Counted from the stretch's first letter, positions 20,164 to 35,910 are shown. The stretch is DNA of 64,000 nucleotides from Nitrospirales bacterium (GCA_965223765.1 OZ245016.1:594654-658653), one strand, 5' to 3'. Notes: generated by a model not told the origin, from the sequence alone. Translations and numbers: made by a program.

Positions 20164-21540
20164 TTAATCTACCTTCGGGGCGTATTCGATGGGGGTGCCG
20201 GGTTGAGTGAGTGGAGAAGGAGCGCTGTCAGGTCGGCCGACGCCTTTTTGCCCCGCATGAGACTGGAAGAGACGAGCCAACCCTGAGATATTGGATCGGG
20301 AATCGAACATGTGAAGGACTTTTTTTCTTCCCGCTTTGGCTAATGTTGTTCGAAGTTCTGAGTCGGTTAAAAGTTCTTCTAATGCATCAGCTAAGGCTCG
20401 CGCGTTTTTCTGAGGGACTAACAGGCCGTCTTGTCGGTGTGTGATAAGTTCTGGAATACCTGATACATCAGTCGAGACGATGGGAATTCCACAGGCCATG
20501 GCTTCTGCCAAGACATTCGGAATTCCATCTCGATCCCCATTATCTAAAACATGACAGGCTAACGTGAAAATCGAGGCCTGTTGATAGATTTTGCCTAGTT
20601 GATCTTGCGTGACCCCCGGTTTCAGGGTGAGCGTGTTATCCAGATAAAGCCTGTGTCTTAAGCTTTTGATATGAGATGTCTCTTCATCGAACTCTCCTAA
20701 AATCACACTCTGAAAACGATGTCCCCGTTGTTGGAGGATTCCCAAAGCTTCAACGAGATAGGAAAACCCCTTTTTCTTCACGTGACGCCCAACTGATAGA
20801 ATCACGGGAACGTCGGAGGGGGGGACGGAGGCTGGCAGGAACCGCCCAGTATTGACCCCGTGATACACCCGATGCACTTTGCCTGCATCCTGAGGGAATA
20901 ATCTTTGAAGATGCTCATGGTTAAATCCTGTGCAGGTGGCGACGAAGGTGGTTCGTTGCATCTTGATCGATAACAGGTTCCCAGGGTTTAACTTTGGCAA
21001 ATAAATATCTTTTGCGTGGGCAGTAAAGCTAAAAGGAATACCTGTAAGGGAACTGGCAAACATCGCCATCGTCGTGGCGCCATGACAAAAATGTGCATGG
21101 AGGTGACGAATCGAAGGTGACTGGATTACCTTATTGGCGATAAACCCAGCTCGAAAAAATTCTTTGTACATAGCCTTTTTGGGTTCAAGACCCCAGGTAT
21201 GACGAAGAGAGAAACTAAGCCAGATGGCTTCCATCAACACTTTCACATACTGTAGAGGGCGCTGGGAGAAGAGATGAAGATGAGCCAGGTAATAACGCGG
21301 AACGTTGGCCTTCAGCCACGGCCAAAACGATGAATCAATAGCAGTCGGTTCCTCAGGTAAATACGTGACGGGGCTTTGGATATTGTTGGCCACGAGTGAT
21401 GTTGTGGTCTCCCTGGGAAAGGCTGAAAAAATTTTGAAACGAAATCCCAAGCGTTCAAGTTCATGAATTTCATTCGTGATAAAGGCTTCAGAGTTTCGAG
21501 GAAACCCTTTGAGGATGTAGGCAATAGTAGAGTGGCTCAT
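20164..21540 (-). CDS. GT4 glycosyltransferase
   Basis: FPRNSEAFI, HLHAHF, SFTAHAKDIY, DRDGIPNVLAEAMA. Confidence 0.9.
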   Translation of the reverse strand: MSHSTIAYILKGFPRNSEAFITNEIHELERLGFRFKIFSAFPRETTTSLVANNIQSPVTYLPEEPTAIDSSFWPWLKANVPRYYLAHLHLFSQRPLQYVKVLMEAIWLSFSLRHTWGLEPKKAMYKEFFRAGFIANKVIQSPSIRHLHAHFCHGATTMAMFASSLTGIPFSFTAHAKDIYLPKLNPGNLLSIKMQRTTFVATCTGFNHEHLQRLFPQDAGKVHRVYHGVNTGRFLPASVPPSDVPVILSVGRHVKKKGFSYLVEALGILQQRGHRFQSVILGEFDEETSHIKSLRHRLYLDNTLTLKPGVTQDQLGKIYQQASIFTLACHVLDNGDRDGIPNVLAEAMACGIPIVSTDVSGIPELITHRQDGLLVPQKNARALADALEELLTDSELRTTLAKAGRKKVLHMFDSRSNISGLARLFQSHAGQKGVGRPDSAPSPLTQPGTPIEYAPKVD

Positions 21541-22736
21541 GGTAGTACGACTTGGTAATGCTCAGATGTTGATTGTTTTTCTTGAGCATCAGATGTGATT
21601 TGCTTGAAAAGATTGTGAATCACACCAATGTTCTTGGATACACAAAAATCCTCTTCCACGGTTCTTCTTGCCGCGGTGCCTAATCGTTTTCGATGCTTAG
21701 GGTTTTGGAGTAGCATTTTTAACACTTCAGCCAATGTTTCCGGTTCACCGGGCAGAGTCAAAATCCCATCGTGGCCATCATGGATGAGCTCAGGAATGCT
21801 GGCGATAGCCGTAGAAACGACTGGGAGACCCATCGCCATGGCTTCGACAAGGACATTGGGGATGCCATCACGGTCACCATCTTCGGCAATTTGACAAGGC
21901 AAGACGAAGACGGAGGTCTTCTGATACCAGTCGATAATGCCATTCTGCGGCATTTTCCCCAGGAGGCGAACACAATCACTGATGTCAAATTGGTGAATCA
22001 TCTGTTTCAGGCTCTGTTCGAGCGGGCCATAGCCCACCAGCACACATTGGAAGTGGCACCCAGCTCTTTTTAGTGAGGCACAGGCTTGAATGAGAACAGG
22101 GAACCCTTTTTTGGGACGGAACCGTCCGATGCTCAGAATTAGCGGGCGCGTTTCATCTCTACCAAAAATTTCTTGGGAGTTAGTATGGAACACATTCAGA
22201 TCCACCCCGTGGTAGACCCGATAAATTGGTATATCGGAATGGACGCATTCTTCCAGATAATTTTTGTTGTACTCGGTACAGGTCAGAACGAACTGTGCTC
22301 TAGTCACCTTACGCGATAAATCTTCCTTAGATGAAAGGAAGAGATCTTTGGCATGGGTGGTAAAGCTATAAGAGATTCCGGTGAGGGTATGTACCTGTAG
22401 GGCTACGTCGGTGGGTTCGGAGACATAATGAGCATGAAGATGTGTGATGCCATATTCATGAACCTTTTCAGTGACCCATTCGGTCCACAAGAATTGTTGG
22501 ATGACGTTCCCCTTTCCTCCATTGAATACAACAGGTCCATACAATACTGGAGCCTTGAGTTGACGAATATGTGGGTGTGTCTCTGTGTCAGAGGGGGGGC
22601 GTAAAGAGAGGACGACAAGATTCAGCCCGAGACGTTCTAGTTCCAGTATTTCTTGAAGAATAAATGTCTCCGACAGTTTCGGAAAAATCTTGACGAGATA
22701 CCCAATCGTTGGTACCGCGTTTGATGTAGATGACAT
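21537..22736 (-). CDS. GT4 glycosyltransferase
   Basis: FPKLSETFI, HLHAHY, SFTTHAKD, DRDGIPNVLVEAMA. Confidence 0.9.
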   Translation of the reverse strand: MSSTSNAVPTIGYLVKIFPKLSETFILQEILELERLGLNLVVLSLRPPSDTETHPHIRQLKAPVLYGPVVFNGGKGNVIQQFLWTEWVTEKVHEYGITHLHAHYVSEPTDVALQVHTLTGISYSFTTHAKDLFLSSKEDLSRKVTRAQFVLTCTEYNKNYLEECVHSDIPIYRVYHGVDLNVFHTNSQEIFGRDETRPLILSIGRFRPKKGFPVLIQACASLKRAGCHFQCVLVGYGPLEQSLKQMIHQFDISDCVRLLGKMPQNGIIDWYQKTSVFVLPCQIAEDGDRDGIPNVLVEAMAMGLPVVSTAIASIPELIHDGHDGILTLPGEPETLAEVLKMLLQNPKHRKRLGTAARRTVEEDFCVSKNIGVIHNLFKQITSDAQEKQSTSEHYQVVLP

Positions 22737-22759
22737 ATGAATCTGACTGCCTCATGCGA

Positions 22760-24082
22760 TCATGCGGGTTGTAGCAAGGCATGATGGAAGGGTTCTATAG
22801 GGTAATGTCTCTTTTGACTATCGGAACGAGCATGACCCCAGCTTCCATTCATTAATAAATTCAGGATAGCCATAGTAAGGGTGGGTAAGGCATTGAGGTT
22901 TACAGCAGGTCCAGGGGTTAGGTTTCTTAGATCGTGGGGTTGGCATAAAAGACCTTCTAATTTTTCACAGAAAGAATCTGGGTTGAGTTTGTCTGGATGA
23001 ATCGCTTGGAACCACCCTAATTTCGCCATGCGCTGGGCACGTATCCATTGTTCTTCAACGGGGCGCGTTCTTGGAATTACTAATGCTGGTTTGCGTAAGG
23101 AGAGTAATTCACAAATGGTTCCATACCCACCCATGGATACGGCTACATCTGCGGCATCTAGGTAACTCATCACATCATCGGAAAAAGTCAGTGTCCTGAG
23201 GGAAGGCCATTGAGAGGCTTGAAGCTCTAATTCAAGACGAGTGGCTTCGGGCATTTCTGGACCGAAAATCAGAGTGCTGTACACTCGCTTGTGTTGAGAT
23301 ATGCGTGGCATGCTTGCCAGGTATTGTTGAAAAAGCTGCACACCATCTTCCCCCCCTCCGGCAGTGACGAGCACCATTTGATCATCTGCCGTCAGGCCTA
23401 ATTTCTTTCTCATATGTTCTCGGGTATGTTGTCCTGACTCTCGACGGAGATATCCACAATATTGGGTTTTGAGTTGAAGCGCTGGCGGGAACTGATATTC
23501 TGAACAGGCTTTGAACACTTCTGGAGAGCCTAGTACAAAAATACGATCGTAATGGGCTTCGAGCGCTTGAAAGTATTTCTGCTTTTTCCAGATGGCTCGT
23601 GTTACCTGTGGACTATCCAGAATGTCACGCAACAAAAGTGTGACGATGGTTTCAGGATGATAGGTTTTTAAATGGGCTAACGCTGGCTCCAATTCATTCT
23701 CGACCCCATAGGGTTTTTTGTCGACGATGACCATGTCAGGTTGAAAATTTACTAATGCGGCGAGAATGAGCTCAGTTCGGAGTTTGACGATGTCCCGCGT
23801 ATGTTCCTTCAGATATTTTGGGCCATAGCCATTGCATTTTGTTCGGGAAAGACAGGGCAATTTAATATAGTCAACACCCTCTGGGATGCGAAAACTATGC
23901 ACCATTGGAGAACCAGAAATGATCAAAATGGACAGGTCGGGAATCGACTTCATGAGAAATTGGCAAATAGAGAGGGTTCGACGAATGTTTCCCAACCCAA
24001 AGGTATCGTGGGAATAAAAGACTACCCGCTTAGTGTTCGCATTGACCATGTCTTTGAATTTTTTGAGTGAATGGAGTTTCAT
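22760..24082 (-). CDS. GT-B glycosyltransferase (GT28-like), first gene of the glycan operon
   Basis: YSHDTFGLGNIRR, YIKLP, LRDILD, VTAGGGEDG, SMGGYGT, EQWIRA. Confidence 0.85.
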   Translation of the reverse strand: MKLHSLKKFKDMVNANTKRVVFYSHDTFGLGNIRRTLSICQFLMKSIPDLSILIISGSPMVHSFRIPEGVDYIKLPCLSRTKCNGYGPKYLKEHTRDIVKLRTELILAALVNFQPDMVIVDKKPYGVENELEPALAHLKTYHPETIVTLLLRDILDSPQVTRAIWKKQKYFQALEAHYDRIFVLGSPEVFKACSEYQFPPALQLKTQYCGYLRRESGQHTREHMRKKLGLTADDQMVLVTAGGGEDGVQLFQQYLASMPRISQHKRVYSTLIFGPEMPEATRLELELQASQWPSLRTLTFSDDVMSYLDAADVAVSMGGYGTICELLSLRKPALVIPRTRPVEEQWIRAQRMAKLGWFQAIHPDKLNPDSFCEKLEGLLCQPHDLRNLTPGPAVNLNALPTLTMAILNLLMNGSWGHARSDSQKRHYPIEPFHHALLQPA

Positions 24083-24107: not shown

Positions 24108-24136
24108 TTAGACGACCCAACGAAGGAATAGTAAAC
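24108..24136 (-). promoter_or_regulatory. putative ECF sigma promoter of the glycan operon
   Basis: minus strand GTTTAC-N16-CGTCTAA, about 26 nt before ATG 24082; its TAA is also the stop codon of the upstream receiver gene. Confidence 0.72.
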
Positions 24137-24563
24137 CGGTACACAAACTATTGACGGTCATGGCCAAACCCGGGGTTCCTGAAAAGAAAGAGGGGGAGGA
24201 AGGAGGCTGTTTACTGGTCAATTGTTCAACGTTGGCCATCAATTCATCAAAAGCAAAAGGCTTTGGCAGGTAGCCATTGGCGCCGGCTATTTGGCTTTCG
24301 AGGAACATCTCTGAAGAATCTTTGGCGGTCATCACTAAGACAGGGATGGTGTGCTGCTGTTGTCGAAGTTTCCGGCAAAAATCCAATCCATTTTCTTCCC
24401 CCAGGAACACATCTAGGATGGCCAAGTCAAAGTTATCGATTTGTAGCAATTCCCATCCCTGACTGTGAGAAGTGGCCGTCGCTACGGAATGAGATTCCGC
24501 CTCGAGACCTCGTTTTAAAAACCGTAATATCCTCAAATCATCGTCTAGCAGTAGAATATTCAT
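24108..24563 (-). CDS. single-domain response regulator (receiver only)
   Basis: MNILLLDDD, AILDVFL (phospho-Asp), MTA, GANGYLPKPF; no DNA-binding domain. Confidence 0.85.
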   Translation of the reverse strand: MNILLLDDDLRILRFLKRGLEAESHSVATATSHSQGWELLQIDNFDLAILDVFLGEENGLDFCRKLRQQQHTIPVLVMTAKDSSEMFLESQIAGANGYLPKPFAFDELMANVEQLTSKQPPSSPSFFSGTPGLAMTVNSLCTGLLFLRWVV

Positions 24564-24613
24564 GGTTTTGGTTCCATCGCAGGTTGATAATGGGCAGACT
24601 ATAGCAATGCCAT

Positions 24614-24684
24614 ATGAAGGAGCCGTGAGGATAAGATGAAAGGTTGGTGAGAAGTACATGAGAATTTGATGAGAGCCTGATGGA
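24614..24684 (-). promoter_or_regulatory. array of seven OmpR/PhoB-type direct repeats, 11-bp period
   Basis: plus strand ATGAA, GTGAG, ATGAA, GTGAG, ATGAG, ATGAG, ATGGA at 24614, 24625, 24636, 24647, 24658, 24669, 24680. Confidence 0.7.
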
Positions 24685-24862
24685 TTCAGTCTTGTAATGA
24701 GATGGGGTCCCTCCTAAAGAGGGGTAGAAAAGGACGACTTGAATGTCATCAGGAAAAATTAACGTAGCGGCTTAAGGAGACGGACCGGCATAGACAACTC
24801 GGAAAACGAGAGATTAAGTTTAGAGGAAACTTAACAGCGAAGTGGTTGAAGAATACTTCTCT

Positions 24863-24938
24863 TGTCATGCCCGCAGTACCAAGCGGACATCCAGTGCTCA
24901 TGCAGAAAACCTAGATTCCCGCCTTCGCAGGAATGACA
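24863..24938. repeat. REP/RPE-like palindromic element
   Basis: TGTCATGCCCGC...CATCCAG...CTAGATTCCCGCCTTCGCAGGAATGACA, the GTCAT...ATGAC double-hairpin architecture. Confidence 0.65.
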
Positions 24939-25002
24939 TGGTTCCCAAAATTCCGACCGCTCCTGTCGTAAACTTCATCGGACATTGTCTGAGAGATATA
25001 AT

Positions 25003-25680
25003 CTAAGTTTCTACCATCGAAATTTTATAGCCGACGTCTCGCACTGTCTGAATGAGCTTCCGTGAAAACCCTTTGTCTATTTTATTACGCAAATAGCGAA
25101 TGTAGACATCCACGACATTAGTGGGCGTGTCGTAGTGGTATCCCCACACTTGTTCCAAAATCATCGTTCGGCTTAGGGGACGATTGGGGTGGGACATCAG
25201 ATATTCCAGTAAGGCAAATTCTTTGGCCGTCAGTGTAATGGGTAGTCCAGCTCGCGTGACTTCGTGTGTTTCTTTATTGAGGCAAAGGTCTTGAATATTG
25301 AGGGTGGTTGGAATGTCTTGATAATTGCCACGGCGGAGGAGTGCTTGGATCCTGGCCAGTAACTCTTCAAACGCAAAGGGCTTGGTTAAATAATCATCCG
25401 CTCCGGTTTGCAAACCTTCCACTTTATCCTGGAGCCCATCTCGTGCTGTCAGCATTAAGATGGGAGTATGAATCTTGTCTTTTCGTAAGATTCGACAAAT
25501 TTCCGTGCCATTCATCCCTGGGAGAAGAAGATCAAGAATAATCAGGGTATACGGATTTCTTCCATACTCCAGGCCTTCTTCTCCGTTGAGTGCGACATCC
25601 ACATGATATCCTTCGGCTTCTAGACCTCGTTTGACAAAACTGACAATGCGTTGGTCATCATCTACGAGGAGAAGATCCAT
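25003..25680 (-). CDS. OmpR-family response regulator
   Basis: REC domain (IILDLLLP, GADDYLTKPF) plus winged helix (LTAKEFALLEYL, NVVDVYIRYLR, IQTVRDVGY). Confidence 0.93.
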   Translation of the reverse strand: MDLLLVDDDQRIVSFVKRGLEAEGYHVDVALNGEEGLEYGRNPYTLIILDLLLPGMNGTEICRILRKDKIHTPILMLTARDGLQDKVEGLQTGADDYLTKPFAFEELLARIQALLRRGNYQDIPTTLNIQDLCLNKETHEVTRAGLPITLTAKEFALLEYLMSHPNRPLSRTMILEQVWGYHYDTPTNVVDVYIRYLRNKIDKGFSRKLIQTVRDVGYKISMVET

Positions 25681-25732
25681 TGAAATGGGTTATTTCAGAT
25701 TGGCAGTGTAGGTTCCTTGTTTTCTCTAGGGG

Positions 25733-25761
25733 TTAGACGGATGAACTTGGGAAAAGTAAAT
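25733..25761 (-). promoter_or_regulatory. putative ECF sigma promoter
   Basis: minus strand ATTTAC-N16-CGTCTAA, 53 nt upstream of ATG 25680. Confidence 0.65.
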
Positions 25762-25875
25762 GAACCTCTCCTCAGATCATCAAGGGAGGTTCTTGAACAA
25801 TGGAAGAATCTTGATTGTTGTGGGTCCTCTACGAAGGAACGGAGAGGGGGCTGGAGGAGAAGGGAGGGAGGAGGA

Positions 25876-26544
25876 TCACTCAGAAATCTTATAACCGATG
25901 TCACGAACCGTCTGGATCAGTTTTGGCGAAAAACCTTTATCTATCTTGTTCCGTAGATAGCGGATATACACATCGACGACATTGGTGAGTGGATCATGGT
26001 GTTGCCCCCACACCTGTTCAATAATCATGGTTCGGCTTAAGGGGCGGTTAGGACGAGACATGAGGTATTCCAACAACGCAAATTCTTTGGCCGTCAGTGA
26101 GATGGATTGTCGTCCTCTAGTGACCTCGCGGGTTTCTTTGTTTAAACACAGGTCGCCCACTTCGAGGACTGCGGATGTCTCTTGGTAGGTGCCTCGTCGG
26201 ATAAGAGCCTGGATTCGGGCTAGCAATTCTTCGAAGGCAAAAGGCTTCGTTAAATAATCGTCAGCACCAGTTTGAAGACCTTCAATCTTATCTTGAAGCG
26301 CATCTCGCGCCGTGAGCATTAAAATTGGGGTACGGATACCTTCTTGCCTTAGCGTCTGGCAAATTTCCTTTCCTGTAAGATCGGGTAAAAATATATCTAG
26401 AAGAATGACCCCATAATTTCCTCTTCCCGACTCTAACCCTTGCGGTCCAGTATTCGCTGTATCGACTTGAAAGCCTTCGGCCTCTAAGCCCCGTTTGACG
26501 AACTGGGTAATACGTTCATCATCCTCGATGAGGAGTAGTCTCAT
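25876..26544 (-). CDS. OmpR-family response regulator, close paralog of 25003..25680
   Basis: same REC and winged-helix motifs; overlaps the histidine kinase 3' end. Confidence 0.93.
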   Translation of the reverse strand: MRLLLIEDDERITQFVKRGLEAEGFQVDTANTGPQGLESGRGNYGVILLDIFLPDLTGKEICQTLRQEGIRTPILMLTARDALQDKIEGLQTGADDYLTKPFAFEELLARIQALIRRGTYQETSAVLEVGDLCLNKETREVTRGRQSISLTAKEFALLEYLMSRPNRPLSRTMIIEQVWGQHHDPLTNVVDVYIRYLRNKIDKGFSPKLIQTVRDIGYKISE

Positions 26545-28399
26545 GTAAGATCTCGTCAGCTACGGCTTGTTGGACAAAACGCAGGGTCACAGTAGTGCCT
26601 TTCTCTGGAAGACTGGAAAAACGAATTGTACCCCCATGAGCCTCAGTAATCCATTTGGCTATGGCTAAGCCCAGTCCGGCGCCAGGTTGGGTATGGTCTT
26701 TGATGCGATGCCCCCTGTAAAAGCGATCAAAAATATGAGGAAGGTCTTTTTCGGCAATACCTTGCCCTTGGTCCATGATCTCAATGGTCGTGTATCGGGA
26801 AACCGCGTTGAGACGTATCTGGATGTGACTATTGGAATCGGAATACTTGATCGCGTTATCCAGGAGAATGAGCAACAGTTGTTTCAACCGTTGAGGGTCA
26901 CCATAGATTCGGCTTGAGGCTAGAGGATCCATGAATGTGACTATGCTGTGTTTTTTCTGAGCCAGAATGGCGGCTTCCTGCAGCACGTCTTGTAAAAGAT
27001 TTTCGAGATCGACTTCCGTTTTGGTGATTTGAATCGTCCCGGTTTCTGAACGGGCGAGAAAGAGGAGATCACTCACTAGTTTATTCACTTCTTCTGTCAA
27101 TTGAACAATGCGTTCCAAGGAGGTTTTATAGTCCAGAATGGGTTTGTCTTTTCCCCTCAGAGTGACTTCGGCTTCTCCCCGAATGACGGTGAGGGGTGTG
27201 CGGAGTTCATGGCTGATGTCGGCAAAAAACTGTGACCGTAGTTGGTCGAGTTCTTTTAACCGGGCATTGGCTTTTTCCAATGCAGCCTGAGCCTTTTTCC
27301 GTTCTGTGATGTCCTGGGCCAAACAGGCAATGCCTTGAATGGTCCCATTGGTTTCCTTCATTGTGGCCGCCGAAATTAAAATGGGGACCAACGTTCCCAG
27401 TTTTGTCCGGTAACAGCTCTCGACATGGCCAAAACTGCCTTCTTTGAGCAATTGCCTCATCCGTTCTGGGGTCAAGAGATTCTGGGTGGGTGGGAATAGG
27501 ACTCCGATATGTTGGTTGATGAGTTCATCCCGTTGGTAGCCTAAGAGCTTCTCCGCCGAACGGTTCATTGATTGGATGATGCCCTCGTGATCCAAGACGA
27601 CTAAGCAGTCCAACATCGATCGTAAAATACTATCCAAGTATTCCTTTGAGACCGTGGTTTGATAAAGTCGTTCTGTCATTTGGTTGAAACCAGTGGCCAA
27701 TTTCCCTAACTCGTCAGTTGCATGAACTGGTACGGATACATCCAGTTGGCCTGAGGCCACTTGTTGAATAGCGCTTGTAAGGGGCTCAATAATTTTGAGA
27801 GATTGGCGGAGTAGAAGGACTAAAATGCTTCCTCCGAATAACGTCGTGAGACCATTGATCACAAGGGTTTGTTGGAGAAGATTCTTGAGTCGCTCTTCCA
27901 GTGGATTGCGATCAAGCAGAATTCGTATCCATCCAATAAATAGTTGGGAATCTTGTGGACCAGGAATATCAGGATGAGAGTCAGGGCTTCGACGAATCAC
28001 CACGTTGATGAATTGGGATATTGATGCACCCTCATGGAGCATGGTGTCTTGCTGAAAGACCGGGGCCATACTGGGTAATTCAATCTCTGATTCAGTCAAT
28101 TCCACGATAGAAGATTCAATCCAGAGGGATTGAGAAGCGTCGTATGCGAGAACAGCTAACACCCCTTCTGCCTCTCCGAGAGATTGTAAGAGTGAGGTAA
28201 ATCCTTCAACGTCTTGTGTGTGATAATAGATTCTTGATTCAGAGGCGATCGCTTTGGCCAGTTCTCGCCCACGGATATGGAATTCCTCGAACATGGCCTC
28301 TCGCGTGGCCTGATAGGTGAAATAAGTCAAAACGCCGATGGCACCGATTAAGATAATCAGCGCGATAGCCAATAGTTTTTGCCACAAGCGAAAATGCAT
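26519..28399 (-). CDS. sensor histidine kinase (2 TM, periplasmic domain, HAMP, PAS, HisKA, HATPase)
   Basis: DELGKLATGFNQM, ADISHELRTPL, LLDNAIKYS, DQGQGI, GAGLGLAI. Confidence 0.93.
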   Translation of the reverse strand: MHFRLWQKLLAIALIILIGAIGVLTYFTYQATREAMFEEFHIRGRELAKAIASESRIYYHTQDVEGFTSLLQSLGEAEGVLAVLAYDASQSLWIESSIVELTESEIELPSMAPVFQQDTMLHEGASISQFINVVIRRSPDSHPDIPGPQDSQLFIGWIRILLDRNPLEERLKNLLQQTLVINGLTTLFGGSILVLLLRQSLKIIEPLTSAIQQVASGQLDVSVPVHATDELGKLATGFNQMTERLYQTTVSKEYLDSILRSMLDCLVVLDHEGIIQSMNRSAEKLLGYQRDELINQHIGVLFPPTQNLLTPERMRQLLKEGSFGHVESCYRTKLGTLVPILISAATMKETNGTIQGIACLAQDITERKKAQAALEKANARLKELDQLRSQFFADISHELRTPLTVIRGEAEVTLRGKDKPILDYKTSLERIVQLTEEVNKLVSDLLFLARSETGTIQITKTEVDLENLLQDVLQEAAILAQKKHSIVTFMDPLASSRIYGDPQRLKQLLLILLDNAIKYSDSNSHIQIRLNAVSRYTTIEIMDQGQGIAEKDLPHIFDRFYRGHRIKDHTQPGAGLGLAIAKWITEAHGGTIRFSSLPEKGTTVTLRFVQQAVADEILHETTPHRG

Positions 28400-28404
28400 G
28401 GGAA

Positions 28405-28845
28405 TTAGTCACCCTCCTCCTGGAGAATGAATACGACTTTGACGTTGTCATTAACCTTTGACAGACTTACGTACCCAATGGCCCCTTCAATGGCAGACAC
28501 AAAACGGATGACGGCTTCCTCGGATCGCTGGATGAGACTTTGGACGGCTACCGGAGTTCCCTGTCTGAAAAATTGTTGGTTGGATTTGGCGTTGAGTACT
28601 TTCTCATAAAATACGCCTCGAACAGGGGAGGCAATCTCCCGGTTGACCAATTTGATTCGACCCCCATCTGACCAATGGAGTTCCTCTCCCCGATACATCG
28701 CGGCAATGTTCGTTTTTGTCAGAGACGTGACTGGATTGTTGTTGTTCACGATGACGGCTAAAGATTCCGCCTGGGCTAACGAACCGCTCCATAAGCTGAT
28801 TGCTAGGATCCAACTCATAAACCGGTAGAGGTGTTTGCAAGGCAT
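28405..28845 (-). CDS. small periplasmic binding-protein-like protein (phosphate-SBP-like family)
   Basis: signal peptide; AVIVNNNNPV..LTK...W.DG..I.L; V..FV....GAIGYV. Confidence 0.72.
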   Translation of the reverse strand: MPCKHLYRFMSWILAISLWSGSLAQAESLAVIVNNNNPVTSLTKTNIAAMYRGEELHWSDGGRIKLVNREIASPVRGVFYEKVLNAKSNQQFFRQGTPVAVQSLIQRSEEAVIRFVSAIEGAIGYVSLSKVNDNVKVVFILQEEGD

Positions 28846-28863
28846 GTGTAACCAGATAGATGT

Positions 28864-30147
28864 TTAAAACAACCAGGCGATTGACGCGATGAAGCCATTC
28901 CAGTTCTTTCGCTCAATGCCGCCGTTATTGATTTGGTATTCAGTTTTGAGGACGTAGTTTTCTATAGGGCGATAATTTAAGCCTGCGGTAAATCGATCTT
29001 CCGTCAAATTGCCACTGCCTGCCTTCGTTGTAATGCGAGCATGGTCATATCGGCCGACAAGCGTGAACGTGGGGTGAGTATAGGGTTCTCCCAAAAAAGT
29101 CTGATCCAAAAAACGCGGCCAGAAGTGATAATTGACTTGGACATAATATCCATATAACCGAGAAGGGGTTCGGGATCCTTGGATGTCAAAATGCGCGAAC
29201 TCTCCCTTGAATTCAAAGTCTTCCCAGAACGGGACACCTCGAGGTTTCAATTCCAAATCCACGTCAAAACCAGTGATCGTTTTTCCATTCCTGGGGCTTG
29301 AGGCTCCACGATATCCACTCACCCCTATTTCATATTGATCAGCAAGCTTTACAGTGGCTCGCCCGACCACAGCTTTTTGTCCATTGTTATCTCGGGTCAA
29401 CGGAGATCTGGCATCTTGAAGGCCGCCGTTAGTGGGAGAAAATTGATCAGTCAGTCCATTAATCACTGCGACTTCATAGGTGCTCACTATATTGGAAGAC
29501 CAAGGGACAAGGCCGAAGAGACTTGCTCCCAAATCCCCCCATGTTGTGGGAACAATTTGGCGGGCAACCAGTGGTCGATCGGTCAAGTCGCGTCTGGGAT
29601 CAAAATGGTCTAAATTAAATTTTCCAAACGGGACCAACACAACCCCTCCCCGTAAATTGATCCATTTGGCGATAAGCAGATCAACGTAGGCTTGTTCCGC
29701 ATGAACTTCTCCTTCAGGAATGCCGAGATCAATTTCATTATAAAAACGAATGCGGTCATGAATTTGTCCAGCAATGAGGACTTCGAGTTTGCCTTCGAAA
29801 GAGGTTTTTGCTCCGGCGAACGTTTCGAATTCAACAGCTCCATATCCTCCGAGGATAACCCGTTGGGAAATGTCATCCAGAATGGAGTTTTGTTGCATTT
29901 CAAGGGCCTCCACGCGGTCCTTCAGGGCTTGAATGTCCTGTTCATACACGTCTTCTTTTTTCACCATTTGAGACTGAGCGGCATCGGAGGTTTGTTCTTG
30001 GGCACCAAATCCCCAGGATGGGCTCAGCATGATTCCCAATACGGTTACACAGAGCCACAAACGAATGTATGGGTTTCGGACGAACCTTGATGGGGATGAA
30101 TTTGCGATATGAGATTGATGGTCGAGTAAAACGTTAAGACATACCAT
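28864..30147 (-). CDS. outer-membrane porin with N-terminal coiled coil
   Basis: EQAYVD, PFGKFN, DRPLV, PTTW.DLG, AGLNYRP, terminal AWLF; ATG 30147 overlaps the upstream TAA. Confidence 0.75.
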   Translation of the reverse strand: MVCLNVLLDHQSHIANSSPSRFVRNPYIRLWLCVTVLGIMLSPSWGFGAQEQTSDAAQSQMVKKEDVYEQDIQALKDRVEALEMQQNSILDDISQRVILGGYGAVEFETFAGAKTSFEGKLEVLIAGQIHDRIRFYNEIDLGIPEGEVHAEQAYVDLLIAKWINLRGGVVLVPFGKFNLDHFDPRRDLTDRPLVARQIVPTTWGDLGASLFGLVPWSSNIVSTYEVAVINGLTDQFSPTNGGLQDARSPLTRDNNGQKAVVGRATVKLADQYEIGVSGYRGASSPRNGKTITGFDVDLELKPRGVPFWEDFEFKGEFAHFDIQGSRTPSRLYGYYVQVNYHFWPRFLDQTFLGEPYTHPTFTLVGRYDHARITTKAGSGNLTEDRFTAGLNYRPIENYVLKTEYQINNGGIERKNWNGFIASIAWLF

Positions 30148-30800
30148 TAGGAAGACCTCTTGAAAATTGGAGCGATGATCCAATGTGGGAAATGATGAGT
30201 GGAATGAGAGGAGGGGGCAAATAGGTGTTGGCCATGCCGAGGAGAAAATTTCCAATGATGAGTTGGTGGACGCGTTTGATTGGCCGGACTATCAAAGTCG
30301 GGTTGTTGAAGTTCTTGAATAATGAGATGAAGCTCATTCTGATGAATAAAACAGAATCCCTTGGTGTAGAGATCGCTAGTTTGTTCATTACGTGCTCTGA
30401 AAGCGATAACTTCTTCAGGAAGAGCTTGCCTAAAAGCTTTAGGGAGTTCCGAGGCCAGAAGACTTAATTGATATTCTGTAAAGGTGGAATGTTGGTTCCC
30501 CATATGGGAGGAAAACAGTTCGCTTTGGCGATAATAAATATTATGTAAAAGCTCTCGAAGTTGAGTGGTCTCAAGATCAGCAGGGTGGGAAAGATTGGTG
30601 ACGATGGGATACCCGCTTGGCCATTCCTGAAGATCAACCCATTCGGTCTCGGTTTGGTATATGGACAGATGAACCGGTGAGCCACAGGAGACGAGAAACA
30701 TGAGAGTGAGGCATATGCTCACCACAAAGACGGAACGAACAATTTTGGTGTAAGGGGGCCGGGAAAGATGGGCTTTAATGTTGTGCGCGGAGACTAGCAT
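30147..30800 (-). CDS. putative lipoprotein
   Basis: lipobox-like FLVSC after a hydrophobic stretch; head of the porin-SBP-HK-RR operon. Confidence 0.6.
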   Translation of the reverse strand: MLVSAHNIKAHLSRPPYTKIVRSVFVVSICLTLMFLVSCGSPVHLSIYQTETEWVDLQEWPSGYPIVTNLSHPADLETTQLRELLHNIYYRQSELFSSHMGNQHSTFTEYQLSLLASELPKAFRQALPEEVIAFRARNEQTSDLYTKGFCFIHQNELHLIIQELQQPDFDSPANQTRPPTHHWKFSPRHGQHLFAPSSHSTHHFPHWIIAPIFKRSS

Positions 30801-31033
30801 CCCAATTCACGCGAACGAAGCACCATAGCCAAATTCCTAATGTCGCAGTGCGTGAAAGGTTGGCTGAAATGTATGTCGTCCATTTCAGGGGCATCTCTAG
30901 ATAAACCACTCGAGTTGGATCATCATATTACTATAAGGTCAAAACTCTTTGCATGTTATGAATTCTATCTAGGCGAGGGAGAAGGCCCCATCAGAACAGA
31001 CACAACTGCAATGACCATTGCCGTCTCATTCTA

Positions 31034-31081
31034 ATGAGGAAAAATGAGAAATCCATGAGAAAAAGATGACAATTACATTAA
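31034..31081 (-). promoter_or_regulatory. OmpR/PhoB-type direct-repeat array
   Basis: plus strand ATGAG, ATGAG, ATGAG, ATGAC, ATTAA at 31034, 31044, 31055, 31066, 31077 (spacing 10, 11, 11, 11); same motif as 24614..24684. Confidence 0.62.
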
Positions 31082-31126
31082 AACCCCTGATCTGGGTCTC
31101 CTCGCAATGAGGTTGCTTCCGTACCG

Positions 31127-31159
31127 TTTGACAAAGCCCAGAGAGTGGGCTTTGTCAAA
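31127..31159. terminator. hairpin, likely terminator
   Basis: TTTGACAAAGCCCA-5nt-TGGGCTTTGTCAAA perfect 14-bp stem overlapping the stop of 31155..31616. Confidence 0.7.
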
Positions 31160-31616
31160 TGCCTTGCCGACCTTCACGCCGGTCGTCCCGTCGTCCAAGG
31201 CTTCGATGCTCTCTTCGATCTTCTCGTCTGCCCAATCGTCGGTCTTCGCGTCGATCGGCTCGTCGGTCTAGTTGGCGATCTTCACGTCGGTCGTTTCGTC
31301 TATCGAGTCTCCGATCTTGTTGCCTGTCCTCTCGTCGATCCATTCTCTGGTCTCCGCGTCGCCCTTCTCGTCTTGTGAGACGGCGATCTTCTCGTTTATC
31401 GGCTTGTCGCATGCGGTTATCCTCATAGCGACGTGATGCACGAGAATAGTCTGAGTAACCAACACCTGACCCTGTGTCCGTCGAACCACGCCTTGAGTCC
31501 ACCGACCCCTTGCCTGAATTAAGGGACCCAGGTCCGGAATTACCCTCATGAGCGATAGCTGCTGTGCCTAAGAGCATGAGGAACGAGGTAGTGAGTATGA
31601 TGATCTTTGGTGTCAT
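31155..31616 (-). CDS. exported low-complexity Arg/Asp repeat protein
   Basis: GGAGG RBS, signal peptide, NSGPGSLNSG linker, then about 80 aa of (RREDRRxD)n. Confidence 0.7.
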   Translation of the reverse strand: MTPKIIILTTSFLMLLGTAAIAHEGNSGPGSLNSGKGSVDSRRGSTDTGSGVGYSDYSRASRRYEDNRMRQADKREDRRLTRREGRRGDQRMDRREDRQQDRRLDRRNDRREDRQLDRRADRREDRRLGRREDRREHRSLGRRDDRREGRQGI

Positions 31617-31753
31617 AAAACCTCCTTCTGGAATTATTGAGTAAAGCGATGTCATTGCAGCAGTCATGAATGTCTCTCGATACGCGAACTCGTCATTCCT
31701 AATCTGTGTGGGCTTTGTACTAGCTAAATCACCGATTCTTCCGTATTGTTTTA

Positions 31754-31783
31754 CTTAGACGACTGAAATGCGCACCCGTAAAC
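31754..31783 (-). promoter_or_regulatory. putative ECF sigma promoter (divergent)
   Basis: minus strand GTTTAC-N16-CGTCTAAG upstream of the repeat-protein gene. Confidence 0.7.
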
Positions 31784-31923
31784 CAGTGGTGCTGTCGAAA
31801 ATGAAAAACCCGAAAGAAAGATTGTTAATTAAAGTGGGGAAACTTGCTGCCAGAGGTTTCTCTTTCTTAAGGTTTTTCGCCATAACTATTGAAAACCCTG
31901 ATGGTTGGAGTCTGTTAGGTTTC

Positions 31924-31954
31924 GTTTACCGTTCAAGGTCATGACACGTCTAAT
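31924..31954 (+). promoter_or_regulatory. putative autoregulatory ECF sigma promoter
   Basis: GTTTAC-N17-CGTCTAAT, about 60 nt upstream of the sigma ATG. Confidence 0.72.
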
Positions 31955-32013
31955 TTTGCAACAAGCTGACCTTCTGAGGAGTTGCATGCAGGGGAGCCGA
32001 TGGAGTTATCCCC

Positions 32014-32604
32014 ATGGATGACTCCTTGGAGAGTCAGAAGGAAGCTCGGCTCATTGTTCGATGTCAGCAAGGCGATCAAGAAGCGATCAGTCTATTGATT
32101 GAGAGATATGGAGATCGTGTTGTCAACGTGATTGGTCGAATCATCGCCAATCCAACCGACGCGCATGACGTGGCTCAAGAGACGTTTGTCGCAGCGTTCA
32201 AGGCCATTGGCAACTTTCGAGCCGATAGCCGGTTTTCGACCTGGATTCATCGAATTGCGGTCAATAAAGCTAAGGACTACCTACGCGTGCAAGGCCGACG
32301 GCAACATAGAGAAGCACCGACCAGCGGCGACAAAGACGGACAGAACTCCGTCTTGGAAATTAGCGATGAACGAACACCAGAGCATGAAGCGTCAGAAAAG
32401 CAGATGGCTTATCATATGGAACAAGCCATTCAAGGATTGTCTCCGCTCTATCGAGAAGCATTCGTGCTCAAACATGTGGAAGGGATGGACTATGAGGAAA
32501 TGGTTGAGGTACTTGGAGTCGGAAAAGATGTCCTGAAAATGCGAGTCTATAAAGCCAGAATCAAACTATCTAAAGAGTTGATGTGGCTCAAGGAGGATGT
32601 ATGA
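32014..32604 (+). CDS. ECF RNA polymerase sigma factor
   Basis: DAHDVAQETFVAAF, FSTWIHRIAVN (region 2), LSPLYREAFVLKHVEGMDYEEM...RVYKAR (region 4). Confidence 0.92.
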   Translation: MDDSLESQKEARLIVRCQQGDQEAISLLIERYGDRVVNVIGRIIANPTDAHDVAQETFVAAFKAIGNFRADSRFSTWIHRIAVNKAKDYLRVQGRRQHREAPTSGDKDGQNSVLEISDERTPEHEASEKQMAYHMEQAIQGLSPLYREAFVLKHVEGMDYEEMVEVLGVGKDVLKMRVYKARIKLSKELMWLKEDV

Positions 32605-33338
32605 CCATGGGACAGCATTTAGATATCCACGACGATGAGGAAGAGTTGAACGATCGAGATTGGTTGGTTCAACGCTTTGTCGATCAAGATCTCTTACCAC
32701 AAGAACGGATCGAATTTTTACGGGAGATGGATCGTGATCCAATCTTGCGTCGACAGGTGTTGGCAACTGAGCAGATACTGTTGCAGGCCACTCAACTACC
32801 TCGAACGACAGCATCGGTTGGATTGAAGGAGCAGGTCTTACAACAGCTGCTTTCTTCCAACAAGACTAACAGGAAATGGTGGGAATCAGCATGGTCGATG
32901 TTGTTTGCACCCCGTGTATTGGAATGGAATCCAGCAATCGCCTTGACTGCGGCATGCTTGCTGGTTGGCGTGCTCTGGATGATCAAGCCGTCGACAATTC
33001 CCGATGACCCCACCGTCACACCCCCTACAGCTTTCGTCAAGACTCGTGAGTCAGGGGATGCTCAGAGCCTAGTCATGGTTCGACTCGTTTTATTAGCACC
33101 CCAAGCCCAATCAGTGGCTGTGGCAGGAGATTTTAATGGCTGGAAGCCTGAAGAAACTCCCTTGCAACCTACAGAAGGTGGAGCCTGGACGGTGACGTTA
33201 CAGGTTCATCCGGGCCGATATCACTACATGTTTGTTGTCGATGATGAGTCTTGGGTCACTGATCCCTTTGCAGGTGAATATAGTGCTGACGGGTTTGGGG
33301 CCAAAAATGCGATCTTGGATGTCTCTCATGTTCTTTAA
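32601..33338 (+). CDS. putative anti-sigma factor with a C-terminal glycogen-binding (CBM48/AMPK-beta E-set) domain
   Basis: ATGA overlap with sigma; cytoplasmic N-terminus, one TM, then APQAQSVAVAGDFNGW...GRYHYMFVVD..WVTDP...DGFGAKN. Confidence 0.85.
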   Translation: MTMGQHLDIHDDEEELNDRDWLVQRFVDQDLLPQERIEFLREMDRDPILRRQVLATEQILLQATQLPRTTASVGLKEQVLQQLLSSNKTNRKWWESAWSMLFAPRVLEWNPAIALTAACLLVGVLWMIKPSTIPDDPTVTPPTAFVKTRESGDAQSLVMVRLVLLAPQAQSVAVAGDFNGWKPEETPLQPTEGGAWTVTLQVHPGRYHYMFVVDDESWVTDPFAGEYSADGFGAKNAILDVSHVL

Positions 33339-33388
33339 ATGCCATCCCACTTGCAGGAGAGGAAGCTGTTGGATACTCTCTGGAAGAT

Positions 33389-33769
33389 ATGAGGTGCTTC
33401 CGGGGATTAGGGTTACGGTTTGGTTGCTTCATGGTTGCAGGAGTAGCCTGCGGGTTGTTCAACGCTTGCGGGTCTTTTCCGTCTGTTCCTCTTACTCCTT
33501 ATCAAGTCAATGGAGGTGTGGAGTTTTCTCTGGTTGTCTCCGATGCTGAATCGGTAGCGGTCGTAGGAAATTTTAATGGGTGGTCACATACGGCCCATCC
33601 ATTGGCTCAAGTAGAAGAGGACTTCTGGTCGGGAACGGTGCCATTATCTCGTGGTGAGCATGTATTTATGTTTGTGGTGAACGACGAGGAATGGGTGGTT
33701 CCCCCGCTGGCGGATGACTATGTTGATGATGGATTTGGACAGAAAAATGGCGTTGTCGTCGTGCCGTAG
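33389..33769 (+). CDS. stand-alone glycogen-binding (E-set/CBM48-like) lipoprotein
   Basis: lipobox-like FNAC; AESVAVVGNFNGW, GEHVFMFVVND.EWV.PP, DDGFGQKN. Confidence 0.82.
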   Translation: MRCFRGLGLRFGCFMVAGVACGLFNACGSFPSVPLTPYQVNGGVEFSLVVSDAESVAVVGNFNGWSHTAHPLAQVEEDFWSGTVPLSRGEHVFMFVVNDEEWVVPPLADDYVDDGFGQKNGVVVVP

Positions 33770-33778
33770 CCATGCAAG

Positions 33779-34771
33779 GTGAAGCGCAGACCATTAGATG
33801 ATCAAAAAATTATGCGTAGACTGAAAACCTTTGCAATCGGATTCGTGAGTCTCGTGGCGATCATTCTGCCATATGTCAGTCACGCTGCGTCGTTACCTGC
33901 TCAAGACGTGCAGGACATTAATATGTTAGGGCAGACAAGAGGCCATGCGCCAGAATCCATCAACCGTCTTCTAGACCATGCCAAGCGAGCACTTGACCAA
34001 GGGCTACCAGAACGGCCTGTGGTGAATAAGATAAAGGAAGGTCTGGCGAAGGGGGCCCCGCCGGAACGCATACGGCCGGTCATTCGAGATATGGTCGATC
34101 GTCTTCGTAAGGCTCGAGATATGCTACGGGAGATGGCACCAGAGAGATCGAGAAAAAGCAGCCCAGAGGGTTCACGAGCAACTGAGGTGATGGCAGAAGC
34201 TTTGGGGCGGGGAGTGACCATTGACGAAATACGGTCTCTCAATCGTTCCAGAGGAAAAGGGGCGGTGAGTCGTGAAGCTTTGGCTTTTGGTGCAAAAGGG
34301 TTAGCTCTAACGAAAGAAGGTGGCTTAAAAGCTCCTGAAACGCTTCCGGTCGTTGGGGAAGCCATTCGGCAAGGGTTTCGAGCCAATGAATTGCTCGATC
34401 TTGGTAGGGAAATGAAAAAGCGTGGAAAAGAGTTTCGGACAGACCGCAACCGACTGCGAGATCTTAAGAGAGCGGTAGAGCGGGGAGAACGCGCAGAAAA
34501 AATCTTCGAGCGAGACCGGCGATCCAGTTCAGGACGAGGTCGGGGTGGAGAGCGGTTGTCCAGAGAGGATCGTGATACATCAAAAAATCCGGATCACGAT
34601 CGAACCCGCCGCGATGACCGATCTGGAAAAGGCAGAGGTCGTGATCGCATCGAATCTCGAGAGCGAATCGATCGGGGGCGAGACTCTCGAGGAAGCTCTG
34701 ATGCTCAACGGGATAGCCGAGATCAAGGACGGGACTCGAGTGGGCGAGGGCGAGGCGGGCGAGATGATTAG
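33779..34771 (+). CDS. exported hypothetical protein, helical core with R/D/G-rich disordered tail
   Basis: signal peptide; GLPERPVVNKIKEGLAKGAP; C-terminal RDRD/SSGRGRGG repeats. Confidence 0.7.
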   Translation: MKRRPLDDQKIMRRLKTFAIGFVSLVAIILPYVSHAASLPAQDVQDINMLGQTRGHAPESINRLLDHAKRALDQGLPERPVVNKIKEGLAKGAPPERIRPVIRDMVDRLRKARDMLREMAPERSRKSSPEGSRATEVMAEALGRGVTIDEIRSLNRSRGKGAVSREALAFGAKGLALTKEGGLKAPETLPVVGEAIRQGFRANELLDLGREMKKRGKEFRTDRNRLRDLKRAVERGERAEKIFERDRRSSSGRGRGGERLSREDRDTSKNPDHDRTRRDDRSGKGRGRDRIESRERIDRGRDSRGSSDAQRDSRDQGRDSSGRGRGGRDD

Positions 34772-34774
34772 GGC

Positions 34775-35719
34775 TTAGAATCGGAATCGGATTCCGCCTG
34801 AGAAACCAAAATCTGCCGCACTTTTCGAGAGTCCGACAAAGCCACCTACATTCATTCCAATCGCGCGAGTTATGCGGTAACGAATATCGCCATAGACATC
34901 TCTTGCGTGAGGAATGCCTTTCACGACAGCTCGATATTCTTCATAAAATACACTCGTGCGTAATTTGTCGGTCAGGTAATATCCCAGACCCACATCGTAA
35001 TTCCATTGGTTTCGAAAATTCCGGCCCTTGGGGTCGCCAAGAATAGTATAGCCTCCATCTAGATACAAAATAAGGTCTCGGGTTAAGGCCTTAGCGGCCT
35101 CGCCACCAAACCCATAGTCAAATTCGCCAGTCCCTAAACCCTTATCTTCGTCGGCCGTCGGGAATTTTACTCGACCGGTGAGGTTCACCGATGGAATCCA
35201 ATCTTGTTCATCGATGAGATAGTAGCGCGTAGCAAGTGTAATATCTCCTAATCCACTCTCTGTTTGCTTGTCTCTTTTTGTGGTTGTGGTGATAGGACCG
35301 GAATCGTCATCATCAACTTCGTCATCATCGGATGGTCCGCTACTGCCGGAGCCACTGTTGCTACTTCCCGGTCCACTGTTATCGCTGCCGGAACCACTGT
35401 TACTCCCCCCGCCGCCACTTCGGTCACCACCAATAAAGGTCACGGAGCCATCACTGGTAATCCGGACATAGGGAACCGTAACCGACAGTTCTCCAAAACT
35501 GAATAAGCGTTTGATAGCGAAAGGGACATAGGTCACCGTAGTCGTCGTGTCGGTTCCATAATCACCTCGGCTATAGGAAGGATTGACTGAGATCTGCCAG
35601 TTTTGTGCACTCTCTTCAGCAAGGAGACGGGGTGGGAACAACAGAATGGGTATCAATAGTAGACAGTACAACCCTCCAGCCCAAGCCAAAAAAGTCCTAT
35701 CAGAACTTCTATAGCGCAT
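34775..35719 (-). CDS. outer-membrane beta-barrel 'transporter'-like protein with a G/S/D-rich insertion
   Basis: AAGGAG RBS; YSRGDYG, SGLGDITL, KFPTADEDKGLGTGEFD, terminal FRF; internal GGGSNSGSGSDNSGPGSSNSG...DDDE. Confidence 0.75.
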   Translation of the reverse strand: MRYRSSDRTFLAWAGGLYCLLLIPILLFPPRLLAEESAQNWQISVNPSYSRGDYGTDTTTTVTYVPFAIKRLFSFGELSVTVPYVRITSDGSVTFIGGDRSGGGGSNSGSGSDNSGPGSSNSGSGSSGPSDDDEVDDDDSGPITTTTKRDKQTESGLGDITLATRYYLIDEQDWIPSVNLTGRVKFPTADEDKGLGTGEFDYGFGGEAAKALTRDLILYLDGGYTILGDPKGRNFRNQWNYDVGLGYYLTDKLRTSVFYEEYRAVVKGIPHARDVYGDIRYRITRAIGMNVGGFVGLSKSAADFGFSGGIRFRF

Positions 35720-35881
35720 AAACACTCGACTCCTTGTGGTGATTGGTATGATAGGTATTATTTGATCAGGCAGCAAGACAAGATCTAGAACTGTTATCGG
35801 TTTGACCATAAAGTCTTCATGGGGGCTTCGAGAAACAAGAAATATCGCTATGGAGTAGATAATTCAATTGGCTGTCTGCAT

Positions 35882-35910
35882 TTAGACATTCTAAAGATCC
35901 AATGGTAAAC
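35882..35910 (-). promoter_or_regulatory. putative ECF sigma promoter
   Basis: minus strand GTTTAC-N16-TGTCTAA upstream of the beta-barrel gene. Confidence 0.65.

Follow-up and report, generated by a model that had tools for sequence, protein, structure and literature searches.

A predicted ECF sigma factor regulon joining a CBM48-bearing anti-sigma candidate to a glycan operon in Nitrospirales

Introduction

A bipartite motif, GTTTAC-N16/17-CGTCTAA, recurs within a stretch of 64,000 nucleotides (nt) from the genome of a Nitrospirales bacterium (GCA_965223765.1, OZ245016.1:594654-658653; hereafter the window, with positions counted from its first letter). We report here that this motif is probably the promoter read by an extracytoplasmic function (ECF) sigma factor encoded among the sites, a factor that would be controlled by a co-transcribed anti-sigma candidate and would drive five units, including its own operon and a long operon for glycan synthesis and export. 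Taken together, the comparisons described below point to a real, conserved and previously undescribed ECF regulon of a familiar kind.

Wastewater flocs, biofilters and marine particles harbour nitrite oxidisers of the Nitrospira group, which live there as matrix-embedded microcolonies and are hard to manipulate genetically. Our literature search found no paper on an ECF sigma factor with a CBM48-bearing anti-sigma factor, nor on a Nitrospira ECF regulon, and the main text of the 2021 ECF reclassification contains no mention of Nitrospira, glycogen, CBM or GTTTAC.

Results

A rare two-block motif precedes genes on their own strand

The genome is a single contig of 3,792,887 bp with 48.6% G+C. 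In its strict form, GTTTAC-N16/17-CGTCTAA, the pattern has three matches in the window: before the sigma operon, before the divergent gene for a secreted Arg/Asp-repeat (RD) protein, and before the GT28-like gene that opens the glycan operon. Freeing the first base of each block adds two more sites, one before the second of two OmpR-type response regulator genes (OmpR2) and one before a gene for an outer-membrane beta-barrel (Table 1). These five matches to the loose pattern TTTAC-N16/17-NGTCTAA, all between 24.1 and 35.9 kb, are intergenic or at a gene end, and each shares the strand of the next gene, with 25-87 nt between the end of the -10 block and the start codon. An earlier note on this DNA had listed the same five sites, each upstream of a gene and on its strand; all of them exist, at coordinates that needed correction by at most one base (31755 for 31754, and 31953 for 31954), and the gene calls made there were confirmed by Pfam and NCBIfam.

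The strict pattern had no match in 100 dinucleotide-preserving shuffles of the window, and in the whole genome it occurs four times and the loose pattern seven times, with five of the seven loose sites inside these 12 kb. The exact form TTTAC-N16/17-CGTCTAA is present six times genome-wide, as against 0-3 times for the reversed pattern and eight scrambled-word controls, and four of the six copies fall within 7.9 kb. Sites with one mismatch, a class that includes the barrel site, number 14 in the genome, inside the control range of 13-47. A simple scan for sigma-70 promoters and terminators returned hits no commoner than in shuffles, save for one terminator-like hairpin after OmpR2 (24915-24934), and the base composition of the region from 6.7 to 36 kb is not island-like, being indistinct from that of the remainder of the window.

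Alignment of 17 sites gave the consensus (c)(G/A)TTTAC-N16/17-CGTCTAA-(c)(t). The -35 block is (G/A)TTTAC in all 17, and 14 of them have an A at the seventh base past CGTCTAA, which makes this position a candidate start point. Because the spacers of the aligned sites are mutually unrelated, the sites are not copies of a repeat. The notion that we are dealing with chance matches or copies of a repeated element can appeal to the barrel site, which taken alone is weak, no better than background, and a doubtful member of the regulon, and to the seventh loose site of the genome, at position 1375015, which is inside a gene and looks accidental. For the other four window sites this notion is already refuted by the shuffles, the unrelated spacers, and the conservation and phyletic data presented below, and its overall probability is negligible. 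We therefore treat the predicted promoters of the sigma gene, the RD protein gene, the OmpR2 gene and the first glycosyltransferase gene as solid.

Table 1. Predicted promoters and principal genes of the locus, in window coordinates; distances run from the end of the -10 block to the start codon.
Feature	Position	Strand	Details
Predicted autoregulatory promoter, sigma operon	31924-31953	+	GTTTAC-N17-CGTCTAA; 60 nt before ATG of sigma
Predicted divergent promoter, secreted RD protein	31755-31783	-	GTTTAC-N16-CGTCTAA; 87 nt before ATG
Predicted promoter, second OmpR-type response regulator (OmpR2)	25733-25761	-	ATTTAC-N16-CGTCTAA; 52 nt before ATG
Predicted glycan-operon promoter	24108-24136	-	GTTTAC-N16-CGTCTAA; 25 nt before start of GT28-like glycosyltransferase
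Doubtful fifth site, before beta-barrel gene	35882-35910	-	GTTTAC-N16-TGTCTAA; one mismatch; 72 nt before start codon
ECF sigma factor, 196 amino acids (aa)	32014-32604	+	Sigma70_r2 28-96, Sigma70_r4_2 136-185, Sigma70_ECF
Single-pass anti-sigma candidate, 245 aa, periplasmic CBM48	32601-33338	+	CBM_48, AMPK1_CBM
Free CBM48 protein, 126 aa, lipoprotein-like N-terminus	33389-33769	+	CBM_48
Exported 330-aa protein, Arg/Asp/Ser-rich tail	33779-34771	+	Final gene of sigma operon
Outer-membrane beta-barrel	34775-35809	-	Phenol_MetA_deg family; convergent with sigma operon
Secreted RD protein, 170 aa	31155-31667	-	
OmpR-type response regulator OmpR2	25003-25680	-	Response_reg + Trans_reg_C
Receiver-only response regulator	24108-24659	-	Response_reg
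Eleven-gene glycan synthesis, modification and export operon, 17.4 kb	6716-24082	-	

The sites are conserved in relatives

The closest loci come from metagenome-assembled genomes of Nitrospirota, Nitrospirales and Nitrospiraceae. Five same-genus loci, with sigma factors 69-71% identical to the one studied here, share the order barrel, 330-aa protein, CBM48 protein, anti-sigma and sigma, and on the divergent side the order RD protein, p217, p463, binding protein, kinase, OmpR1 and OmpR2. The motif stands at the same distance upstream of the sigma gene in all five, with identical hexamers and differing spacers, and it is also found upstream of sigma in two genomes of another family (G034 and G037, family f2); examples from upstream of sigma orthologues are CGTTCAAGGTCATGACA, CTTTCAAGGTGAGGATA, TTTTGGGGTTCATGGCA and CTTTTATGTCCGGTCGA. 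The RD-protein site is kept in three of the five same-genus loci, and the OmpR2 site wherever a locus extends as far as that gene (L023, L025, L027, G001 and G022).

G001 and G022 also retain the glycan-operon site, and there too it overlaps the stop codon of the receiver-only regulator gene. In the genome studied here, the segment 24108-24190 (minus strand) has a double use: the last 10 codons of that gene (encoding TGLLFLRWVV, then stop) serve also as the -35, spacer and -10 of the predicted promoter, the stop codon being the TAA of CGTCTAA, so that all 29 bp of the site belong to the receiver gene; G001 and G022 retain both the overlap and the protein tail. In this genus, protein constraint could thus preserve the site, and one might suppose that only the autoregulation and the divergent gene are real and that the glycan-operon site is a by-product of the receiver coding sequence. 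We consider this very improbable in view of G037 and G034, whose sigma factors are 50-54% and whose GT28 proteins are 38-39% identical to those described here. Their glycan operon is convergent to the sigma operon, and the GT28 orthologue is preceded, at about 160 nt, by GTTTAC-N16-CGTCCAA. This site lies about 28 nt past the stop codon of the receiver gene, in non-coding DNA, and its spacer has three differences between the two species. Since it is non-coding there, the glycan-operon site is not kept merely as protein-coding sequence. Against a coding by-product stand also the lack of any other ECF motif (up to two mismatches) in the gaps of the glycan operon and the occurrence of this operon only in company with the sigma factor.

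Motif, anti-sigma and glycan operon are inherited together

A sample of 41 genomes comprised seven with a sigma orthologue, 29 without a sigma match and five with a distant (~32% identical) homologue only. The seven sigma-bearing genomes hold 26 exact copies of the motif, compared with a single copy in the 29 without a sigma match. We extended the count to 301 Nitrospirales genomes, sorted by the presence of the anti-sigma and with the reversed pattern as control. The 67 genomes with the anti-sigma have on average 2.85 motif copies (control, 0.82), and the 234 without it have 0.22 (control, 0.85). Two or more copies are present in 56 of the 67 as opposed to 10 of the 234 (Fisher p = 4.6e-39, a value that overstates independence because the genomes share ancestry); the contrast with the reversed-pattern control is independent of that ancestry. 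The first gene of the glycan operon, GT28, is found in five of the seven sigma-bearing and none of the 34 sigma-less genomes of the smaller sample, and its distance from the sigma gene is no more than ~25 kb in both families. This distribution implies that the sigma locus and the glycan operon have been inherited together, and we regard the link from the sigma factor to the glycan operon as well supported by computation.

A reader other than this sigma factor, either a different ECF sigma or an OmpR-type regulator, would make the nearness of the motif to the sigma gene incidental. The genome does encode at least two further ECF-like sigma factors, and the locus three response regulators. However, the motif has the two-block geometry of a -35/-10 pair with a free spacer of 16-17 nt and no direct or inverted repeat, it is found directly upstream of this sigma gene in every orthologue examined, and its copy number tracks the presence of this anti-sigma across the 301 genomes. 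Together these make another reader very improbable, and we continue with the sigma factor of the locus as the presumed reader.

As a separate observation, one site, TTTACACTTTGGCTCATAACTCGTCTAA, is conserved in several genomes of genus g5 (G110, G158, G180, G245, G278 and G286) in which no CBM48 anti-sigma is present at E 1e-25 or better; the site is either read there by another sigma factor of like specificity or part of conserved coding sequence.

The sigma factor and its anti-sigma candidate

According to Pfam, the sigma factor carries regions 2 and 4 only. It passes the TIGR02937 model of the ECF superfamily (98.7 bits; cut-off 42.9), and its best equivalog is RpoE (TIGR02939), at 147.7 bits and thus below the cut-off of 236.15, with SigW as third-best equivalog. 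In region content, in size and in its predicted autoregulatory CGT-type promoter, it is an ECF (group 4) sigma-70 factor.

The ATG of the anti-sigma gene overlaps the sigma stop codon. The CBM48 model PF02922 scores 46.1 bits in its product and 35.7 bits in the free paralogue, both above the Pfam cut-off of 22.4. Pfam finds no anti-sigma domain in the 245-aa protein, Pfam and NCBIfam assign to it CBM48-type domains only, and the match to the NCBIfam anti-sigma model NF052375 is weak (E 1.9e-4) and below the cut-off. In the AlphaFold model (overall predicted TM-score, pTM, 0.37), only helices 18-64 are confident (per-residue confidence, pLDDT, 93-96); a further helix at 111-127 is read as the membrane span, and the CBM48 part is of low confidence (pLDDT 35-67). 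A fold search with this whole, low-confidence two-domain model gave no match at E 0.001 or better. RsiW in its complex with SigW (5wuq; probability 0.97, target TM-score 0.64, E 0.33) is the one anti-sigma among the matches; the others, likewise short of significance, are CBM48 modules from branching enzymes. At the sequence level, the C-terminal part resembles the N-terminal modules of pullulanase and of GlgB/branching enzymes in the PDB.

The family of this protein has at least 640 homologues, several of the named ones labelled 'isoamylase early set domain-containing protein'. As seen in an alignment of 32 members, an invariant N-terminal QRFxDxDLxPxER...DPxLRR is followed by a hydrophobic segment read as a membrane span, and the CBM48 core (GDFNGW, WT, PGRYxYMF, WxxDP, DGFGxxNA) is strongly conserved; the zinc-binding HxxxCxxC motif is absent. 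W181, W218 and N236 are invariant in the same 32 sequences and presumably align with the glycogen-contact residues of the AMPK beta domain. No CBM48 neighbour was present at any of 75 loci that encode more remote homologues of the sigma factor (36% identity or less) in other phyla; within the set of loci fetched, only the Nitrospirales clade pairs this sigma with a CBM48 anti-sigma.

The free CBM48 protein encoded next in the operon is 44% identical to the CBM48 domain of the anti-sigma and is syntenic in all relatives examined. The exported 330-aa protein has no family match in Pfam or NCBIfam and is likewise syntenic in relatives. The barrel gene is always linked to the sigma locus, and in G037 it is directly upstream of sigma on the same strand. 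The RD protein has orthologues in five relatives, and an RD-repeat protein is also encoded in the G037 locus.

Extreme low-complexity charged segments mark three exported proteins of the locus (31155-31667, 33779-34771 and 34775-35809). The 170-aa protein has DRREDRR-type repeats, the tail of the 330-aa protein is rich in R/D/S/G, and the barrel carries an insert rich in G/S/D. The family f2 locus, too, encodes RD-rich proteins.

Response regulators, kinase block and glycan operon

On the minus strand the genes follow one another in the order RD protein, p217, p463, periplasmic binding protein fragment, PAS/HAMP histidine kinase, OmpR1, OmpR2, receiver-only regulator and glycan operon. We found no ECF motif with up to two mismatches upstream of the block from p217 to the kinase, and nothing beyond two poor matches upstream of the receiver gene. 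The single regulatory unit from 6.7 to 35.9 kb put forward in the earlier note is therefore too broad, since the block of p217, p463, binding protein, kinase and OmpR1 is without a motif of its own.

OmpR1 and OmpR2 (25003-26544, minus strand) are adjacent paralogues, 70-77% identical as judged by cross-hits on orthologues in relatives. The OmpR1 gene overlaps the end of the kinase gene, and the OmpR2 gene has its own predicted ECF promoter. Because its paralogue is encoded with the kinase, OmpR2 could couple the output of the sigma factor to the adjacent two-component system. The arrangement suggests that the sigma factor may supply this one kinase with a second regulator.

The histidine kinase (26519-28399, minus strand) has 626 aa here. 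In comparisons with L013, L023, L025 and L027, the kinase of several relatives aligned in two blocks with ~250-330 extra residues between them (960 aa in L013), so that a sensor segment was either lost here or gained in the relatives.

The genes of the glycan operon encode a GT28-like and two GT4 transferases, a heparinase II/III-like protein, three APH-like kinases, a GT28-DUF2334 protein, an ABC exporter, an alginate-export-type porin and an APH-type kinase fusion. Its sole long gap, of 226 nt, separates the second and third APH-like kinase genes (13813-15416, minus strand) and has no ECF motif, which leaves two readings: an earlier start for the third kinase, or an internal promoter of another type in the gap.

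The predicted regulon extends beyond the window

A sixth site, a perfect GTTTAC-N16-CGTCTAA, lies at 546870-546898 of the genome on the minus strand, ~47.7 kb before the start of the window. It stands 129 nt before a gene, 80 kb from the sigma gene, for a 379-aa secreted repeat protein in which Pfam finds no domain and for which nine related genomes hold no orthologue. Next to the site, the plus strand carries the decayed remains of a sigma gene, 47.5% identical to residues 36-96 and then cut off by an early stop, and fragment and site together (546870-547102) are collinear with positions 31755-32130 of the window, that is, with the main divergent promoter region. The pair is what remains of a partial duplication of the sigma locus, and its outward-facing promoter has retained both hexamers intact. 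As to the five members claimed in the earlier note, four rest on solid sites; the fifth, the barrel, has a one-mismatch site that is not conserved, and the perfect sixth site lies outside the window.

In family f2 the same promoter precedes further genes (seen in L018, G037:C2:650001-656000, and in L105, G037:C3:266001-278000). In one set, the gene for a small lipoprotein comes first, and those for a DUF5666 protein, an RD-repeat protein and the barrel come after it; another target is a 606-aa cupredoxin-like (CKIHPYM) YNCE beta-propeller protein; and a third is a lipoprotein-HlyD-RND efflux operon. Many of the f2 site sequences recur across genomes. These targets point to a core regulon for metal or envelope stress.

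Discussion

A model for the circuit

The earlier proposal of an autoregulated, ECF-type promoter set joining the sigma/anti-sigma pair, an OmpR-type regulator, the repeat protein and the glycan operon is borne out by the conservation of the sites in orthologues, by co-occurrence and by the distribution of GT28, and the genome-wide and ortholog scans show a motif that is both rare (seven loose sites in 3.79 Mb) and kept upstream of orthologues. In the model that we favour, RNA polymerase carrying the sigma factor would read GTTTAC-N16/17-CGTCTAA. In the resting state, the sigma factor would be held at the inner membrane by the N-terminal helical domain of the co-transcribed anti-sigma, which a periplasmic signal would inactivate, most likely through regulated proteolysis of the kind seen with other single-pass anti-sigmas. 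Once free, the sigma factor would transcribe its own operon (sigma, anti-sigma, CBM48 lipoprotein and 330-aa protein), providing positive autoregulation with built-in negative feedback, and would also act on the divergent RD protein gene, the OmpR2 gene, the 11-gene glycan operon and the remote gene for the 379-aa repeat protein. That it would switch the glycan operon on follows from promoter logic.

Several observations weigh against this interpretation or parts of it. Upstream of the barrel orthologue, no match with up to two mismatches was found in four of the five same-genus relatives, and the lone match in the fifth (L027; two mismatches, 15-nt spacer) lies ~550 nt from the matched coding part and is not credible; because credible conservation is lacking in all five, we demoted the barrel site to doubtful. 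In G025 the sigma gene is kept together with the anti-sigma, but the -35 is degraded and GT28 is missing. The anti-sigma itself is a candidate assigned by context, given the E-values of its NCBIfam (1.9e-4) and fold (0.33) matches. The -35 block ends in TAC, where the AAC core is typical of most ECF groups; we see in this a deviation in specificity that is no bar to ECF membership. To these points should be added the shared ancestry that inflates the co-occurrence statistics and the f2 targets, whose bearing on the signal we consider now.

The nature of the signal

The earlier note spoke of a carbohydrate-sensing sigma factor. In that form the claim is unsupported, as it derives only from the Pfam match to CBM48, and the cupredoxin-like and RND efflux members of the f2 regulon fit envelope or metal stress equally well. 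That the periplasmic CBM48 domain responds to a glycan ligand, possibly the product of the operon itself, is the least supported step of the model and rather unlikely on present evidence, weakened as it is by those f2 members.

A general envelope or metal-stress input is at least as likely, and we put its chances at slightly below even. The regulon would then be just as real, but the CBM48-like beta-sandwich would serve to contact a protein or to sense stress, and the glycan operon would be a lineage-specific recruit to an older envelope-stress regulon. Such an input would suit the f2 promoters in front of the lipoprotein and DUF5666 genes, the cupredoxin-like propeller gene and the efflux genes, as well as the presence of sigma and anti-sigma in G025 without the GT28 operon, and the top families of the sigma factor, RpoE and SigW, are both envelope-stress sigmas. 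It accords less well with CBM48 scores above the Pfam cut-off in both the anti-sigma and the free paralogue, with the invariance of W181, W218 and N236 and their presumed match to glycogen-contact residues, or with the restriction of GT28 to sigma-bearing genomes, beside the sigma locus in both families.

A more specific version of glycan sensing, which we judge unlikely, has two receptors, the periplasmic CBM48 domain of the anti-sigma and the free CBM48 lipoprotein, both binding the glycan that the cell itself exports, possibly in phosphorylated form, or an intermediate of it in the periplasm; the pair would thereby gauge polymer flux and feed back on the operon. If true, this would be a product-sensing ECF circuit for an exopolymer and a Nitrospirales-specific switch for the floc or biofilm matrix of nitrifiers.

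Whatever the signal, the predicted regulon offers a regulatory handle on an uncharacterised, kinase-rich glycan operon. With a defined promoter, a sigma/anti-sigma pair and a target list, the control of polymer export can be tested heterologously without growing the organism, and at least 640 proteins are flagged as probable anti-sigma factors.

Comparison with known systems

The sigma-E of Neisseria meningitidis (NMB2144) recognises a -10 of CGTCTAAH, and a conserved A six nt downstream corresponds to the mapped start in gonococci (PMC2893595). The -10 is thus identical to that of the regulon described here, in which the conserved A is similarly placed, at a distance of ~six to seven nt. Each of the two regulons is small, and the autoregulation known for Neisseria is predicted here. 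In contrast, the Neisseria -35 is GTMAGBWTT with a spacer of 12-13 nt, and the MseR anti-sigma and the msrA/msrB regulon are unrelated (PMC2893595).

SigW/RsiW of Bacillus subtilis combines an ECF sigma factor with a single-pass anti-sigma, for which the locus described here has a candidate, and its promoters have the same geometry, with a -35 ending in AC, a 16-nt spacer and CGT. However, the anti-sigma family described here has no zinc-binding HxxxCxxC, the extracytoplasmic domain and the regulon differ, and the fold similarity to RsiW is not significant (E 0.33).

In the SigI/RsgI systems of cellulolytic clostridia, a membrane anti-sigma bears an extracytoplasmic carbohydrate-binding module and the sigma factor autoregulates; the likeness is limited to these two features. 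SigI is not an ECF sigma, and RsgI has its own N-terminal domain together with CBM3, PA14 or GH-like sensors rather than CBM48. The SigI model is absent among the best 25 of 112 NCBIfam sigma matches, and Pfam finds no RsgI domain. The targets there are polysaccharide-degrading enzymes, whereas here they include an operon for synthesis and export.

The closest parallel in logic is AlgU (AlgT)/MucA of Pseudomonas aeruginosa, in which an RpoE-like ECF sigma factor with a membrane anti-sigma autoregulates and controls the alginate (algD) operon. Both systems have an RpoE-like sigma, a membrane anti-sigma (here a candidate), autoregulation (here predicted), a response regulator (algR in Pseudomonas) and a long exopolysaccharide operon, and the lyase and AlgE-type porin of the alginate operon have counterparts here in the heparinase II/III-like lyase and the Alginate_exp porin. 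The differences lie in the components. The sigma factor described here falls below the RpoE equivalog cut-off (147.7 against 236.15 bits), which separates it from AlgU/RpoE (ECF02-type), and the -35 is GTTTAC, not GAACTT. In Pfam and NCBIfam the anti-sigma shows CBM48 in place of RseA/MucA domains, and where MucB/RseB would be expected there are a CBM48 lipoprotein and the exported 330-aa protein. The operon, unlike that for alginate, encodes GT28 and GT4 transferases, four APH-like kinases and an ABC exporter. An ECF sigma factor that autoregulates and governs an exopolymer operon and a response regulator is a circuit familiar from AlgU, and its predicted occurrence in Nitrospirales is useful more than surprising.

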